A program made the position numbers and the translations under genes. The notes below the pieces were generated by a model, which searched no databases, had not been told where the DNA came from, and saw only the letters and a list, made by a program, of their open reading frames with translations. A stretch of 64,000 bases of DNA from Escherichia phage IME08. How positions within the stretch are numbered: position 1 is the stretch's first letter; the number at the start of each line of letters is the position of its first letter. Below, in pieces: positions 2,645-46,442 of this stretch. Location of the stretch: sequence record NC_014260.1; one strand, 5' to 3'.

Positions 2645-3136
2645 ATGGAGTTGACAGATATCACTCGTGCATTTGAGTCAGGTGACTTTGCACGCCCTAA
2701 CCTTTTCGAAGTGGAAATTCCATTTCTTGGTAAAAACTTTAGCTTTAAATGTAAAGCAGCACCTATGCCAGCAGGCATTGTAGAAAAAGTACCGGTTGGC
2801 TACATGAACCGTAAAATTAACGTAGCTGGTGACCGTACGTTTGATGATTGGACCATTACCATTTATAACGATGATGCACATGACACTCGTCAAGCAATTG
2901 TTGATTGGCAGAATCTCTGCCATGGTATGACCAATGAAATTACGGGCGCAGCACCTGCAGAATATAAGAAACAAGCAGTAGTTCGCCAGTTCCATCGTGA
3001 CGGCAAGACTGTGACCAAAGAAGTTACAATTTACGGCTTATGGCCTACTAACGTTGGTGAAGTCCAGATGGATTGGGATTCGAACAACGAAGTTGAAACG
3101 TTTGAAAGTACGTTCGCTATCGATTGGTGGGAATGA
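2645..3136 (+). CDS. 19: Tail tube protein gp19
   Basis: Start chosen at second ATG (GAGG RBS 6 nt upstream); about 164 aa, matches recalled T4 gp19 including motif RAFESGDFARPNLF. Confidence 0.9.
   Translation: MELTDITRAFESGDFARPNLFEVEIPFLGKNFSFKCKAAPMPAGIVEKVPVGYMNRKINVAGDRTFDDWTITIYNDDAHDTRQAIVDWQNLCHGMTNEITGAAPAEYKKQAVVRQFHRDGKTVTKEVTIYGLWPTNVGEVQMDWDSNNEVETFESTFAIDWWE

Positions 3137-41848: not shown

Positions 41849-41849
<1 letters not shown>
41652..41849 (-). CDS. Hypothetical protein
   Basis: Start at MNNIEK, abuts pnk stop. Confidence 0.4.
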
Positions 41850-43049
<1,200 letters not shown>

Positions 43050-43053
<4 letters not shown>

Positions 43054-43532
43054 ACGTCAAGTTCCTTATAAAGTTCTTCACGGCAGGTTTTAAGGGTTTT
43101 ACCCGATTCGTAAGCAACACTTTCAGGAACATCGCCAAGGGTTACTGCGGATTGCATTTGACCATGGCGTTTAGCCGCATATTCAAAACTTTTCACCAAT
43201 TCACGAATACGTTCTTTTTCATTATACTCTTCAATGAATTCAGGGTATTCCCAAACTGGGCGCATCATACGATACCAATGCTGAATAGTAATATAATTAC
43301 TTCCATCCAGATTAATAATTTGCGAAGGCTTAATAGCGCCCGGAGCATAAAAAGTTACCTGTCTTACTACATCAATACCGTCCACCATAGCCCAAGCAAA
43401 ATCAAAAGTTGCCTTCTTTTCAAGTGGTGTACTTGCACAGGACCCTAGCTTAAGGAGCTTTTGTAATGCAGGCGATTTAACGCCTGAAATGTACTCAGGA
43501 TTAGCCACAAAACTGTTATCACGTAATGTCAT
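43050..43532 (-). CDS. Hypothetical early protein
   Basis: Start set at MTLRDN after GAGGAA RBS; upstream ATG lies inside promoter -10. Confidence 0.5.
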
Positions 43533-43566
43533 AGTCATTTCCTCAAATTTTATAATCCGTAGGAGC

Positions 43567-43596
43567 ATTATACTCTGCTCCCAAGAGTTTGTAAAC
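43567..43596 (-). promoter_or_regulatory. Early promoter GTTTAC-N18-TATAAT
   Basis: Minus strand GTTTACAAACTCTTGGGAGCAGAGTATAAT. Confidence 0.55.
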
Positions 43597-43700
43597 TACT
43601 TTCCAAAAAGACCATCAATACACATACTGAAAGCAATCCCGAAGCAAAAGAATGCGATAGCTAATCTAACGGCATCCCAACCAAGACTACACTCAATCAT
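43596..43700 (-). CDS. Possible small hydrophobic protein (34 aa)
   Basis: Own translation MIECSLGWDAVRLAIAFFCFGIAFSMCIDGLFGK; ATGA overlap with o-spanin stop. Confidence 0.25.
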   Translation of the reverse strand: MIECSLGWDAVRLAIAFFCFGIAFSMCIDGLFGK

Positions 43701-43987
43701 TTGCACTTCTCCTCTTTTAACCCGGAACGATAATAACATAACATAGATTTCTGGTCTTGTACATATCTTTTTACGTCATTCAACCAAATACGATGTTCTT
43801 GGGAATCTTCAAATGGCATTCCAACCCAAGCTTTACCATCGATTACCTTAACCTGCCATTTAACATTATGTTCGGCAATAGGTTGTGGCCATGAAGGATG
43901 TAGTTGTTGTTTAGGCACTACAGGAAGCTCCTGAGCACACCCAACTAACAAGCCAATAGATAATACTACCACAGATAATTTAATCAT
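43697..43987 (-). CDS. Outer-membrane spanin lipoprotein (o-spanin, PseT.2-like)
   Basis: Signal peptide with lipobox LLVGC, paired with upstream i-spanin. Confidence 0.8.
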   Translation of the reverse strand: MIKLSVVVLSIGLLVGCAQELPVVPKQQLHPSWPQPIAEHNVKWQVKVIDGKAWVGMPFEDSQEHRIWLNDVKRYVQDQKSMLCYYRSGLKEEKCK

Positions 43988-44337
43988 TCTGTAATGCTCC
44001 TGAAGTCTTCTGTAAAGGAATCGAAGGACTTGTTGATTTGTTTTTCGACCAGTCCTGGCTTACTTGCCACCACGTGCGCCTTCTTCGAATCTTTACGGAG
44101 CTTTTCATTTTCTACCTTAATTTTATCCATTCGGGCATTCATTTCAGTAGTACGGAATTCAATATCAGAGTATTGACCACGAAGGTCCTCTACAGCTTCG
44201 GCGTTCTGTTTTGCCGTTTGCTGGGTTGTTTTCAGTTCTTCAGTAAGGGTATCAATACGGCTTGATTGATACGAAATAAAACCGTAAGCACCTACTGCAA
44301 TGGCTCCAGCTAAAAGGTAAATACTTAATTTAGACAT
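43984..44337 (-). CDS. Inner-membrane spanin (i-spanin, PseT.3-like)
   Basis: N-terminal transmembrane helix followed by charged coiled-coil region. Confidence 0.8.
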   Translation of the reverse strand: MSKLSIYLLAGAIAVGAYGFISYQSSRIDTLTEELKTTQQTAKQNAEAVEDLRGQYSDIEFRTTEMNARMDKIKVENEKLRKDSKKAHVVASKPGLVEKQINKSFDSFTEDFRSITE

Positions 44338-44825
44338 TTGGTAATAATCTCGATGATGTCATCACGTGACAGGGAATTAATAAGAACTGTTTTAGGATTT
44401 TCACACTGAATTTTGTACGTTTCGAACATAAAACACAATTCTTCAGCGGTATGGTAAGGACTTGAAATGCCAAGGCGATTAAACTTGTCGCTTAATGGGT
44501 CACAAATCAAATAGAAAGTGATGCCTGAGATTTTAACATTAGGTTGGCTAATATTAATGAACACCTCGGCATCGTACTTGGAAAGGTTGTTTCGGAGAAA
44601 CTCAACCATAGAGTTAACAGCTTCGGGCATGGCTTCACGCTTTTCTTCTGCATAACGGGTAGAGTATTCTTTTTGCTTGATTTTCTTTTTAGCATTTTTG
44701 GCTAAAGTAACACGAAGATCGGTCAGGTAACCTACTGCACGAGAACCTTTAAAAACTTGGATACCGTCAGTAGAGTCACCAAAAGCCTTAACAACCATTT
44801 CGTTAGTAATCATTTGCATATTCAT
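44325..44825 (-). CDS. Alc-like protein (by position between rnlA and spanins)
   Basis: 166 aa ORF with early promoter; T4 Alc is of similar size at this position. Confidence 0.45.
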   Translation of the reverse strand: MNMQMITNEMVVKAFGDSTDGIQVFKGSRAVGYLTDLRVTLAKNAKKKIKQKEYSTRYAEEKREAMPEAVNSMVEFLRNNLSKYDAEVFINISQPNVKISGITFYLICDPLSDKFNRLGISSPYHTAEELCFMFETYKIQCENPKTVLINSLSRDDIIEIITKCLN

Positions 44826-44855
44826 TTTGTTTTCTCCTCATTAGTTGGTAAGTCT

Positions 44856-44884
44856 ATACTAACACATCATGAGGAGATGTAAAC
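44856..44884 (-). promoter_or_regulatory. Early promoter GTTTAC-N17-TAGTAT
   Basis: Minus strand GTTTACATCTCCTCATGATGTGTTAGTAT. Confidence 0.5.
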
Positions 44885-46032
44885 TACTCTACCACAATTT
44901 CTTTCAAATATTTTTCAGGGATTTGGGCTTTATGGTTTTTCAAGAACACCGAGTTAATCTGGTCTACAACCGTATCATAATTAATACCGCCTACGTACGC
45001 CTGCATAAGAATAGAGAACAACCCTGGGAAGTCCTTAAGGATTAGCTGTCCGGTAACGGCATAGTCTTTACGGTCGCGGCCCTTGAGTTGGGAATACGCT
45101 GCTTCCAACAAAGCCAATGATTGTTCTAGGTAATCTAAATGGATGCGTTCAAAGGCATCGATTTTCTCGATAGCAAACGAATCTGTACTGAACAGACCAC
45201 GAAGGTCGTCAGTTCCACCTGCCACTACAACTTCAAACAAACGTTCGTTATTGTTAATGGAATCTTTGGTATGATGCAATGCACTGTACCAGGCAGTTTT
45301 GAGTTTAAAGAACGTACCATCTTTCAGTACAAAGATGAAACCTTCAATACCCTCTTGTTTACGGATGTTTTCTACGAAATCACCTTCAGTGAGGTCATAA
45401 CTTTCAACCAAATGCTTACGCAGGGCCCCATCTTTAAACAGTTCGGCATACGGAATATATTCACCTGTTTCATTATTACGAACATTCAACAGGATGAGGT
45501 TTGTTTCTTGGTAAGCCAGCACGATACGGTTGGTAGGTGCAACATATTCAAGGTTGCAGGTATACCCAGCTTTGGTGATTTCTTCTAGACGTGCGGCAAA
45601 AGCCTCGTTCTCAGGGAGACGAAGGAAGCGTAAAGAATCATGCACCATTGATGAATGGATAGAGCCTTTAGATTTAACAGAAAGATACTGTCGGTCCATG
45701 AATGTAGAAATCAGAGAACCATCTTCCTTAGCCATTACGAGGTCGATATTTTCTGGCGACAAATCTAGACCGATAGTCAGTGGGTTTTCGTCAAGGTTAA
45801 AGAACTTTTGCATAGGACGAGCAGCAATACGTACCGGACCGTTCTCGTCCATTTCAAACATAATGCCACGGCACTCTAGTGCGCCGTCTTCCAACCAATC
45901 ACTGTACGATGCATAGTTATAACTAAAGATGCGATAGTTGACTCCTAGCGCACTCTGAAAGTCTTTAAAGAAGAACTTAGATTTAGTCGAGTTTTTAACC
46001 AGGGCCATCAAGTTATCATATAATTCAATCAT
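44884..46032 (-). CDS. rnlA: RNA ligase 1 (RnlA)
   Basis: 382 aa; KEDGSL adenylation motif; T4 order. Confidence 0.92.
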   Translation of the reverse strand: MIELYDNLMALVKNSTKSKFFFKDFQSALGVNYRIFSYNYASYSDWLEDGALECRGIMFEMDENGPVRIAARPMQKFFNLDENPLTIGLDLSPENIDLVMAKEDGSLISTFMDRQYLSVKSKGSIHSSMVHDSLRFLRLPENEAFAARLEEITKAGYTCNLEYVAPTNRIVLAYQETNLILLNVRNNETGEYIPYAELFKDGALRKHLVESYDLTEGDFVENIRKQEGIEGFIFVLKDGTFFKLKTAWYSALHHTKDSINNNERLFEVVVAGGTDDLRGLFSTDSFAIEKIDAFERIHLDYLEQSLALLEAAYSQLKGRDRKDYAVTGQLILKDFPGLFSILMQAYVGGINYDTVVDQINSVFLKNHKAQIPEKYLKEIVVE

Positions 46033-46442
46033 TGCTTTATCCTATGTTGGGTATTCCAAGGTGGATTAAATTTCTTTATGAACATTGGCTCTTCAAGAGA
46101 CATGGTCTCAACTGACATAGTTCCAAGTTCGTTAGTCATCGACAGATTAAAGCACTGCCGTGCATAGAACTCTACCTTTTTACCTGCCATTAACGCTTCA
46201 TGAATCAGAATGGACTTAGTCGAATCTGACGTTTGGTCCTTACGATTAATAGCGGTTCGGTAGTAGTTGATGCGCTTACGAAGATTTTTAGTCTTCCCGA
46301 TGTAGACTAGTATATCATCAACCGCTATAGCATATATGACATTTTGTTTATTTGGTACTGTGAGTGGAGCTATGGTGGCGTCATCTTGGAGTTCTAGGGT
46401 GACGTACTTGATAAAGCTAAATTCGTCTGCGATTTCTTTCAT
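46029..46442 (-). CDS. denA: Endonuclease II (DenA), GIY-YIG-like
   Basis: VIYAIAVDDILVYIGKT motif; start set after terminator hairpin. Confidence 0.8.
   Translation of the reverse strand: MKEIADEFSFIKYVTLELQDDATIAPLTVPNKQNVIYAIAVDDILVYIGKTKNLRKRINYYRTAINRKDQTSDSTKSILIHEALMAGKKVEFYARQCFNLSMTNELGTMSVETMSLEEPMFIKKFNPPWNTQHRIKQ

Follow-up and report, generated by a model that had tools for sequence, protein, structure and literature searches.

A T4-type separated spanin pair and an overlapping gene for a predicted small membrane peptide in the Dhakavirus IME08

The spanins of phages T4 and lambda are the closest described systems to the locus considered here. In lambda, Rz is a type II inner-membrane coiled-coil protein and Rz1 is an outer-membrane lipoprotein, and their genes are embedded. 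In T4, the genes follow the order alc, pseT.3, pseT.2, and the two spanin genes share a 4-nt ATGA overlap. The T4 pair pseT.3/pseT.2 complements lambda Rz/Rz1, PseT.3 contains no cysteine, and C87 and C98 of PseT.2 are each essential; in the same study, gene overlaps down to 8 bp were still classed as “separated” (Kongari 2018, PMC6139136). T4-type phages also contain promoter/stem-loop (PeSL) cassettes which mediate the shuffling of ORFans; in RB49 and phi1, from which they were described, the motif is repeated and frequently has G-tract/C-tract stems (Arbiol 2010, PMC2839356).

This study was concerned with a locus of Escherichia phage IME08 (NC_014260.1), from which a stretch of 64,000 nucleotides, referred to as the window, was analysed. 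The window represents a Dhakavirus, a JS98-like T4-type phage, with 96.7% identity to IME341. Three open reading frames are found on the minus strand: an i-spanin gene (43984..44337), an o-spanin gene (43697..43987) and a 34-codon hydrophobic frame, the mini-ORF (43596..43700). Both junctions are ATGA overlaps on that strand, the first shared by the i-spanin stop and the o-spanin start (43984..43987) and the second by the o-spanin stop and the mini-ORF start (43697-43700). The preliminary description had proposed adjacent spanin genes with a 4-nt overlap as in T4 PseT.3/PseT.2, followed by a 34-codon hydrophobic frame over the o-spanin stop. Both arrangements were found as proposed, and the same 4-nt overlap of the spanin genes is annotated in T4. 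The i-spanin gene comes first, is adjacent to the o-spanin gene and overlaps it by only 4 nt, which corresponds to the separated architecture.

The i-spanin gene encodes 117 aa with no cysteine and was assigned as a PseT.3 orthologue from its open reading frame, its homology to T4 PseT.3 (42% identity, E 9e-27), its match to PHROG 739 (phrog_739), “Rz-like spanin” (E 3.5e-37), an AlphaFold2 model and a heptad test. Its N-terminal transmembrane segment, LSIYLLAGAIAVGAYGFIS (codons 4-22, 44272..44328, minus strand), has a Kyte-Doolittle 19-residue mean of 1.77 and is helical in the model, with Lys3 on the cytoplasmic side. The model contains helices at residues 3-91 and 94-116 (pLDDT 88), and these two helices and their short linker agree with the description in PMC6139136. 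Residues 24-91 form one unbroken heptad register, in which hydrophobic residues occupy 0.70 of the a/d positions versus 0.31 overall, a value reached by none of 5000 shuffles. The N-terminal transmembrane helix and coiled coil proposed for this protein were thus borne out by the hydrophobic segment, the heptad test and the PseT.3 homology.

The o-spanin gene encodes 96 aa with cysteines at positions 17, 84 and 95. Its N-terminus, MIKLSVVVLSIGLLVGC, fits the PROSITE lipobox pattern PS51257; the match, VVLSIGLLVGC, covers residues 7-17 and ends at Cys17, and Lys3 is present. The lipoprotein signal sequence occupies codons 1-17 (43937..43987, minus strand) with the lipobox L-V-G-C at codons 14-17, and the motif LLVGC noted previously as the lipobox corresponds to codons 13-17 (43937-43951). 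That earlier assignment holds by both the PROSITE rule and homology, the two means by which the lipobox was assessed, as the lipobox of T4 PseT.2 is identical. Outer-membrane lipoproteins lack Asp at position +2 after the lipidated cysteine (the Lol avoidance rule), and the +2 residue after Cys17 (residue 18) is Ala. The protein is 69% identical to T4 PseT.2 (E 7e-50), and its Cys84 and Cys95 align with C87 and C98 of the T4 protein. It also matches PHROG 812 (phrog_812), “Rz-like spanin” (E 2.2e-43). Precomputed annotation assigns PF26831, Phage_T4_Spanin, to its homologues; the o-spanin itself had no match in a local Pfam scan.

Sequence comparison thus identifies the two genes as a T4-type “separated” two-component spanin, orthologous to PseT.3/PseT.2. 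This pair is already known, and RefSeq relatives carry the annotation “Rz-like spanin.” Gene order and the ATGA overlap are shared with T4, as are the i-spanin length of 117 aa, a similar o-spanin length (96 versus 99 aa in T4), a cysteine-free i-spanin with two helices joined at a K-P-G linker, and an o-spanin with the lipobox LLVGC and two C-terminal cysteines. The proteins differ from those of T4 by ordinary sequence divergence only, with the transmembrane domain and first helix of the i-spanin least conserved. The resemblance to lambda Rz/Rz1 is one of kind, an inner-membrane coiled-coil protein with an outer-membrane lipoprotein, with weak coiled-coil matches (phrog_214, phrog_89) as the only detectable sequence homology. 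In contrast to the embedded lambda genes, the window pair is separated, its o-spanin is larger and structured, and its disulfide scheme is different. Searches of solved structures with both spanins returned chance coiled-coil matches only.

By analogy with the T4 and lambda experiments, the i-spanin would be anchored in the inner membrane by its N-terminal helix, with its coiled coil reaching into the periplasm, and the o-spanin would be lipidated on Cys17, sorted to the outer membrane and bound to the i-spanin C-terminus. Once the endolysin had cleared the peptidoglycan, the spanin complexes would collapse and the inner and outer membranes would fuse as the last step of lysis. One could suppose instead that the pair is non-functional, for example a decaying remnant, and that another gene disrupts the outer membrane. 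The o-spanin of a natural relative, vB_EcoM_005, is truncated, yet this phage could be isolated, which shows that spanins are dispensable under some conditions. However, in the window both spanin genes have their full length, with pN/pS values of 0.47 and 0.25, and the transmembrane domain, coiled coil, lipobox and both essential cysteines are kept, which makes a non-functional pair extremely improbable. The spanin pair itself adds nothing new, as it is a textbook T4-type system which is annotated in near-identical genomes.

The third frame differs from the arrangement in T4, where the o-spanin gene is followed by pseT.1. T4 has no mini-ORF, and the soluble PseT.1 is encoded at its position. 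A 99-aa open reading frame of the window was considered as a PseT.1 orthologue and rejected, as it has no similarity to PseT.1.

The mini-ORF encodes the 34-aa peptide MIECSLGWDAVRLAIAFFCFGIAFSMCIDGLFGK. Its ATG lies 8 nt from the Shine-Dalgarno sequence AAGAGGAG (43709..43716, minus strand), which is located inside the o-spanin codons for KEEK and which occurs in all T4-like loci examined with an intact o-spanin, 8-9 nt from the start codon. A longer, 47-aa reading from an ATG at 43739 is present in the window. This upstream extension is interrupted by a stop in VR5 and lacks an ATG in SP18; thus, the ATGA start is the conserved start of the mini-ORF. Some loci have an alternative 8-nt overlap between the o-spanin gene and the mini-ORF, which preserves the start logic. 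In Dhakavirus and Gaprivervirus, the overlap and the internal Shine-Dalgarno sequence suggest that the mini-ORF is translationally coupled to the o-spanin gene. In vB_EcoM_005, an ATGA junction with the peptide gene has been formed anew by the deletion which truncates the o-spanin, and this could reflect only a dependence of the peptide on upstream translation.

MX01, NC-G and ABTNLsp5 list the product of the mini-ORF as a “hypothetical protein,” and the ORF is unannotated in the IME341 RefSeq entry, KIT01, VR5, JS98, SP18, Bp7 and AnYang. Its frame is intact in 85 of the 87 phage records matched by tblastn. It matches the full length of phrog_23289 (E 2.8e-11); profile positions 1-35 of 35 align with residues 14-47 of the 47-aa reading. 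This family, PHROG 23289, consists of 35-residue phage proteins of unknown function and includes MX01 gp221. Conservation of the mini-ORF was one of the points on which the preliminary description depended, and the frame is conserved in the manner of a coding sequence.

A short frame that is absent from the annotation of many curated records and directly abuts a strong promoter might also be an untranslated, conserved non-coding spacer, such as an upstream element or attenuator of the following early promoter, held open by chance. We regard this as very unlikely for several reasons. First, pN/pS is 0.33, and 0.21 for the C-terminal half, with pS at 0.48, so that synonymous change is heavily preferred. 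Secondly, indels are whole codons, and the length variation observed is one codon, in frame. Third, the other two frames of the same stretch contain 0-4 stops in every allele. In addition, the start codon is conserved together with its Shine-Dalgarno sequence, and Kuravirus and Winklervirus encode the same peptide followed by different sequence without such a promoter. Lastly, conservation of the DNA in the locus is lowest over the mini-ORF, whereas a regulatory element would show the opposite. The comparison of alleles therefore indicates that the mini-ORF is a genuine protein-coding gene.

Its product is predicted to be a single-helix membrane peptide. Residues 10-28 have a Kyte-Doolittle mean of 2.16, and AlphaFold2 places a single helix at residues 3-32 (pLDDT 79). 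The suggestion that the mini-ORF might encode a small membrane peptide is the right reading, given this one predicted hydrophobic helix, which would insert into the membrane. The motif FSMC in the peptide was considered as a lipobox and rejected; PS51257 is unmatched, and position -1 is occupied by M, L, I or V in every allele.

Downstream of the mini-ORF is an intergenic, early-type sigma-70 promoter with a predicted stem-loop over its -10 box (43560..43595, minus strand), identified by consensus match, fold and conservation, which resembles the PeSL cassettes. The -35 hexamer TTTACA (43590-43595) abuts the mini-ORF stop codon and is separated by a 17-nt spacer from the -10 hexamer TATAAT (43567-43572), giving an 11/12 consensus match. 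The stem-loop (43560-43583) has an 8-bp stem with a folding energy of -12.3 kcal/mol, although its z-score of -1.6 is weak and 13 of 200 shuffles fold at least as well. The element is 92-100% conserved in Dhakavirus. It was the sole strong signal in a promoter search of the minus strand from 43000 to 46200; neither the T4 late-promoter core (TATAAATA) nor a MotA-box middle promoter was found in that interval, and no intrinsic terminator was found after the peptide gene. The locus forms the end of a transcription unit of the early region, in which alc is followed by pseT.3, pseT.2 and the mini-ORF. The next gene on the minus strand (43050..43532) encodes 160 aa from the ATG at 43532 and matches phrog_4482, of unknown function. 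The PHROG alignment begins at residue 13 of its 172-aa reading, and the gene is 483 nt long in the annotation of relatives. This gene is the first of a variable block before pseT and is context, outside the spanin unit.

Like the PeSL cassettes, this element has a strong sigma-70-type intergenic promoter, here with a candidate stem-loop over the -10 box, is highly conserved, and adjoins a variable ORFan at the edge of a block with differing gene content; the genes downstream of it vary among relatives. It differs in that PeSLs are repeated in RB49 and phi1, whereas the stem of the window element is modest and the exact promoter-plus-stem motif occurs as a single copy in the 64-kb window even when 3 mismatches are tolerated, in a search that covered this specific pattern rather than looser PeSL variants. 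With a weak stem-loop and a single-copy motif, PeSL-mediated exchange of mini-ORF alleles is an analogy.

The mini-ORF is the most variable stretch of the locus and lies between the conserved spanin genes and the near-invariant promoter/stem-loop element. Its nucleotide identity to the window is 70-81%, versus 88-100% in the flanks. Nucleotide diversity (pi) is highest, at 0.29, over 43648-43691, and nowhere in the locus is it lower than over the promoter element, where it is 0.019. The peptide alleles do not co-vary with the i-spanin transmembrane domain or the o-spanin signal sequence. For example, MX01 (Dhakavirus) and SP18 (Gaprivervirus) have the same peptide allele and strongly differing spanins, and Dhakavirus phages with near-identical spanins have peptide alleles that are only 54-74% identical. 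Nucleotide identity between the spanin genes of locus L013 and those of the window is 47% for the i-spanin and 69% for the o-spanin. The conserved o-spanin end upstream and the promoter/stem-loop element downstream may supply the homology for allele replacement, which would account for the 105-nt ORF as an island of divergence.

Members of the peptide family were also found in other genomic contexts. The Kuravirus podophages 172-1 and NJ01 carry members among their early genes, unannotated in these two genomes, related metagenomic contigs have them in the same setting, and one Kuravirus allele is 83% identical in nucleotides to a Dhakavirus allele, inside the spread of the T4-like alleles. In Winklervirus, the family member is located one gene further downstream of the spanins and is coupled to a different ORF, and a different 33-aa hydrophobic ORF occupies the position after the o-spanin gene that the mini-ORF has in the window. 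An alignment-based search of a database of 5.8 billion proteins returned 10 clusters, all of them phage or metagenome peptides of 34-35 aa, and a scan of IMG/VR returned 7 loci, on contigs equal in length to phage records among the GenBank matches. A profile search of 1.84 billion representatives returned only 2 clusters and no bacterial or distant relatives, so none that could suggest a function for the peptide. No match was found in Pfam, NCBIfam or PADLOC. There was also no copy of the gene in 5,426 E. coli genomes (blastn) or in plasmids (tblastn); thus, within the genomes and plasmids searched, it is not prophage- or plasmid-borne. AcrZ, MgrB and MgtS are small inner-membrane regulatory peptides of about 30-50 aa with a single transmembrane helix. 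The mini-ORF peptide resembles them in size, in its single predicted helix and in having conserved Cys or small residues along one face of the helix. The likeness is only one of kind, as the peptide had no sequence similarity to any bacterial protein in the searches.

The position of the peptide gene raises the possibility that its product belongs to the lysis apparatus as a third, accessory component or as a regulator, such as a membrane peptide that tunes the spanins or holin and is kept in a fixed ratio to the o-spanin by coupling. Every Dhakavirus and Gaprivervirus locus examined has the ATGA or 8-nt overlap and the conserved Shine-Dalgarno sequence, which is consistent with this, and the tight ATGA coupling to the o-spanin gene, seen in about 80 genomes, is compatible with a role in lysis. 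The predicted membrane helix would also fit, and the 33-aa Winklervirus ORF hints at a recurring theme of a small membrane ORF after the o-spanin gene. However, the T4 spanins work without the peptide and complement lambda as a pair alone (PMC6139136), the Kuravirus members are far from any spanin, the Winklervirus member is coupled to another gene, and the alleles vary independently of the membrane-anchoring parts of the spanins. We therefore consider a lysis component unlikely. The other contexts in other phages suggest that the peptide is probably outside the lysis machine and, together with the lack of co-variation with the spanins and the absence of the mini-ORF from T4, make a mobile accessory inner-membrane peptide, not a third spanin component, the most likely reading.

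A more specific form of this reading, for which the chances seem roughly even, is that the peptide is a horizontally exchanged inner-membrane accessory of the hyperplastic-region ORFan type, which would function in host interaction, for example in takeover, exclusion or counter-defence. It would probably pack helix against helix with an inner-membrane protein of host or phage through the conserved face C-F-G-I-x-F-S-x-C-x-x-G. A more speculative and rather unlikely proposal is that it is a new, horizontally mobile and allele-diverse inner-membrane effector, passed among virulent coliphages that are unrelated (Straboviridae and Kuravirus), coupled to the o-spanin in Dhakavirus, and acting on lysis or envelope competition. 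Such an effector might set spanin/holin timing, or might block superinfecting phages or membrane-based defence, and its allele diversity would then reflect an arms race. For the locus as a whole, we find it highly probable that the best explanation is a T4-type spanin pair together with a genuine accessory membrane-peptide gene outside the spanin system.

The contribution of this locus is thus in the peptide. Many curated records lack its gene, among them JS98, SP18, the RefSeq entry for the nearest relative and both of the Kuravirus genomes in which it occurs. For PHROG 23289, our results add the Kuravirus and Winklervirus occurrence, the motif G-W-D-x-x-R ... C-F-G-I-x-F-S-M-C-x-x-G-I-F-G-K and the allele diversity. 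The mini-ORF also provides an example of a 105-nt gene that behaves as a replaceable allele cassette between conserved flanks. The peptide is a tractable candidate for the class of phage membrane proteins of very small size, which is largely unexplored, and, if it influences lysis or phage-phage exclusion, would bring a new factor into a model system that has been studied very thoroughly.

The window comes from a Dhakavirus, a JS98-like T4-type phage, and a 1.9-kb query round its spanin locus matches 128 phage records, the closest being vB_EcoM_IME341 (96.7% identity, full length). On the minus strand the locus runs rnlA (44884-46032), alc (44325-44825), a 117-aa ORF (the i-spanin, 43984-44337), a 96-aa ORF (the o-spanin, 43697-43987), a 34-aa mini-ORF (43596-43700), a strong promoter (43567-43595), a 160-aa ORF (43050-43532), a 99-aa ORF (42754-43053) and pseT (41849-42757). 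Two ATGA junctions were read in the sequence: the i-spanin stop and o-spanin start share 43984-43987, and the o-spanin stop and mini-ORF start share 43697-43700. Therefore, the preliminary description had the coordinates and layout of the locus right. The alc and i-spanin genes also overlap, by 13 nt (44325-44337; the T4 overlap is 10 nt), so that the frames from alc through both spanin genes to the peptide gene overlap in one unbroken chain. No promoter or terminator was detected inside this chain.

The pair had been likened to T4 PseT.3/PseT.2, and the comparison holds. Identity to PseT.3 is 42% for the 117-aa protein (E 9e-27), which also matches PHROG 739 (E 3.5e-37); identity to PseT.2 is 69% for the 96-aa protein (E 7e-50), which also matches PHROG 812 (E 2.2e-43). 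Both PHROGs are labelled 'Rz-like spanin'. T4 pseT.3/pseT.2 are annotated with the same 4-nt overlap and complement a lambda Rz/Rz1 defect (Kongari et al. 2018, PMC6139136); the 'separated' spanin architecture still includes overlaps as short as 8 bp (PMC6139136). The transmembrane helix and coiled coil proposed for the i-spanin are also found. Residues 4-22 form a hydrophobic N-terminal segment, residues 24-91 follow a single continuous heptad register (hydrophobic a/d occupancy 0.70 versus 0.31 overall, reached in 0 of 5000 shuffles), and the AlphaFold2 model (pLDDT 88) has helices at 3-91 and 94-116 with a K-P-G junction. The o-spanin N-terminus, MIKLSVVVLSIGLLVGC, contains the proposed lipobox and satisfies the PROSITE lipoprotein rule. 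Its +2 residue is Ala, which under the Lol-avoidance rule means outer-membrane sorting. The i-spanin has no cysteines, and o-spanin Cys84 and Cys95 align with C87 and C98 of T4 PseT.2. Both PseT.2 cysteines are essential, and PseT.3 has two helices with coiled-coil propensity in the first only (PMC6139136). Judged from sequence, the window pair has every defining feature of a T4-type spanin. Both genes are already labelled 'Rz-like spanin' in RefSeq relatives, and the pair is known biology. By orthology with the tested system, lysis would proceed as in T4, with a periplasm-spanning complex fusing the inner and outer membranes once the murein is degraded.

Comparison among relatives indicates that the mini-ORF is a real gene. 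First, the frame is conserved: of the 87 records that the 34-aa product matches in tblastn, 85 have it intact over at least 80% of the query. Secondly, it starts at the ATG of the ATGA on the o-spanin stop in all Dhakavirus and Gaprivervirus loci read, one allele group having an 8-nt overlap instead. The motif AAGAGGAG, embedded in the o-spanin K-E-E-K codons, lies 8-9 nt before the start codon wherever the o-spanin is intact. The window also allows a longer, 47-aa reading, but this is closed in VR5 and has no ATG in SP18; therefore the ATGA start is the conserved one. Third, its length varies in whole codons (34 versus 35 aa), and its pN/pS, summed over pairs, is 0.33 at a pS of 0.48 (0.46 in the N-terminal and 0.21 in the C-terminal half), comparable to the i-spanin (0.47) and o-spanin (0.25). 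Lastly, the product matches the full 35-position profile of PHROG 23289 (E 2.8e-11), to which no function is assigned. The ORF is annotated as a hypothetical protein in MX01 (gp221), NC-G and ABTNLsp5 and omitted from IME341 RefSeq, KIT01, VR5, AnYang, JS98, SP18 and Bp7; that the frame is non-coding is nearly excluded. In UPEC01 (locus L011), a 135-nt 'hypothetical protein' annotated at 1217-1351 overlaps the conserved 34-codon frame at 1201-1305, itself unannotated, and is likely a gene-calling error.

The suggestion of a small membrane peptide agrees with a Kyte-Doolittle mean of 2.16, the highest hydrophobicity among the three proteins, and with a predicted single helix over residues 3-32 (pLDDT 79, 11-sequence alignment). 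Invariant or near-invariant residues include M1, E3, G7, F20, G21, C27, G30 and K34, and C4, D9, A16, F18, C19, F24, F32 and G33, with a recurrent C-terminal signature, C-F-G-I-x-F-S-M-C-x-x-G-I/L-F-G-K. In profile searches the family is narrow: 5.8 billion proteins yielded 10 clusters, all of 34-35 aa, and 1.84 billion representatives, scanned exhaustively with HMMER, yielded two. Protein databases hold too few members because gene calling tends to miss small ORFs, but six-frame searches likewise place the family in only a few groups of virulent phages of enterobacteria. Searches of E. coli genomes and of plasmids found no copy, and Pfam, NCBIfam and PADLOC gave no match.

The peptide gene is a local island of divergence. 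Identity between Dhakavirus relatives and the window is 88-99% for alc, 95-99% for the i-spanin, 90-97% for the o-spanin and 92-100% for the 63 nt that follow the peptide gene, but within that gene it drops to 70-81%, with IME341 an exception at 99%. Pairwise diversity is highest (0.29) in the stretch that encodes the N-terminal half of the peptide, 43648-43691, and is 0.019 directly downstream. One Kuravirus allele has 83% nucleotide identity to one Dhakavirus allele, as close as Dhakavirus alleles are among themselves, so the peptide gene has moved between unrelated coliphages.

The peptide also occurs apart from these spanins. The Kuravirus podophages 172-1 (locus L004, 957-1061) and NJ01 (L005, 3001-3105) carry 34-codon homologues between small early genes, in a gap left without annotation, as do related metagenomic contigs, and each Kuravirus gene has its own GAGG Shine-Dalgarno sequence. 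These two phages came from avian E. coli; several Dhakavirus relatives (MX01, QL01) came from duck feces. The Winklervirus family member (in Serratia LC53, Kosakonia Kc304 and Erwinia Virsaitis27) is found one gene beyond its Dhakavirus position, where it is ATGA-coupled to a 161-aa ORF homologous to the window's 160-aa ORF; two of these three phages have no annotation for the family member. A separate, unannotated, very hydrophobic 33-codon GTG-start ORF, MKSNLTLGATLFCAGLVLALLVTVIVFAFVLVV, overlaps the o-spanin gene end in LC53 (L006, 845-946) and Kc304 (L007), in the place of the Dhakavirus peptide; the Winklervirus genomes compared are nearly identical. T4 lacks the 34-aa peptide; its ATGA-coupled gene in the corresponding place encodes soluble PseT.1.

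In addition, peptide alleles do not follow spanin alleles in the sequences compared. MX01 (Dhakavirus) and SP18 (Gaprivervirus) share an identical peptide with strongly different spanins (SP18 locus L013 against the window: i-spanin 47%, o-spanin 69% nt), whereas Dhakavirus with near-identical spanins have peptides just 54-74% identical. These contexts and the allele mismatch are evidence against a specific partner in the i-spanin TMD or o-spanin signal sequence. That the peptide is a lysis accessory, as its place behind the o-spanin gene might suggest, is thus improbable; it is most likely functionally independent of the spanins. The gene would share a transcript with the o-spanin gene, and in Dhakavirus its translation is probably coupled to that of the o-spanin. 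In vB_EcoM_005 (NC_055783; locus L024, about 2900-3111), a 96-nt deletion cuts the o-spanin after about residue 63, so that the two essential cysteines are lost; the peptide gene remains intact and again overlaps the o-spanin stop, now a new one, by ATGA, while the shortened gene keeps its 'Rz-like spanin' label in RefSeq.

Downstream lies an early-type promoter and stem-loop element (43560-43595, minus strand), conserved among relatives and the most conserved stretch of the locus (pi 0.019). It is a near-consensus sigma-70 promoter (TTTACA-17-TATAAT, 11/12) whose -35 hexamer adjoins the peptide stop codon and whose -10 box is overlapped by an 8-bp stem-loop. The element resembles the promoter-early stem-loop (PeSL) cassettes of RB49 and phi1, at which, in the proposal of Arbiol et al. 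2010 (PMC2839356), recombination shuffles ORFans in the hyperplastic regions of T4-type phages. It fits the PeSL family only in part: its stem is weak (z -1.6), and the window contains the exact motif just once. The stretch from this element to pseT varies in gene content among close relatives and is a small hyperplastic block. It holds the 160-aa and 99-aa ORFs in the window (42754-43532), a single ORF of 111-118 aa in AnYang, Bp7 and SP18, a gap and orf217 in JS98, and pseT.1 in T4; the 99-aa ORF has no similarity to T4 PseT.1. A mechanical ORF call gives 172 aa (43050-43568, minus strand); the ATG at 43532, giving 160 aa, is probably the start. GAGGAAA precedes that ATG, the promoter -10 box falls inside the 5' extension, the alignment with PHROG 4482 starts only at residue 13 and relatives annotate 483 nt.

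On the likeliest reading, the peptide belongs to the hyperplastic-region ORFan class and is an accessory peptide of the inner membrane, which may pack its helix against a membrane target and so play a part in host interaction. The spanin and mini-ORF finding is thus correct yet largely ordinary, and its sole unexplored element is the mini-gene, catalogued but uncharacterised, with an interesting population behaviour.
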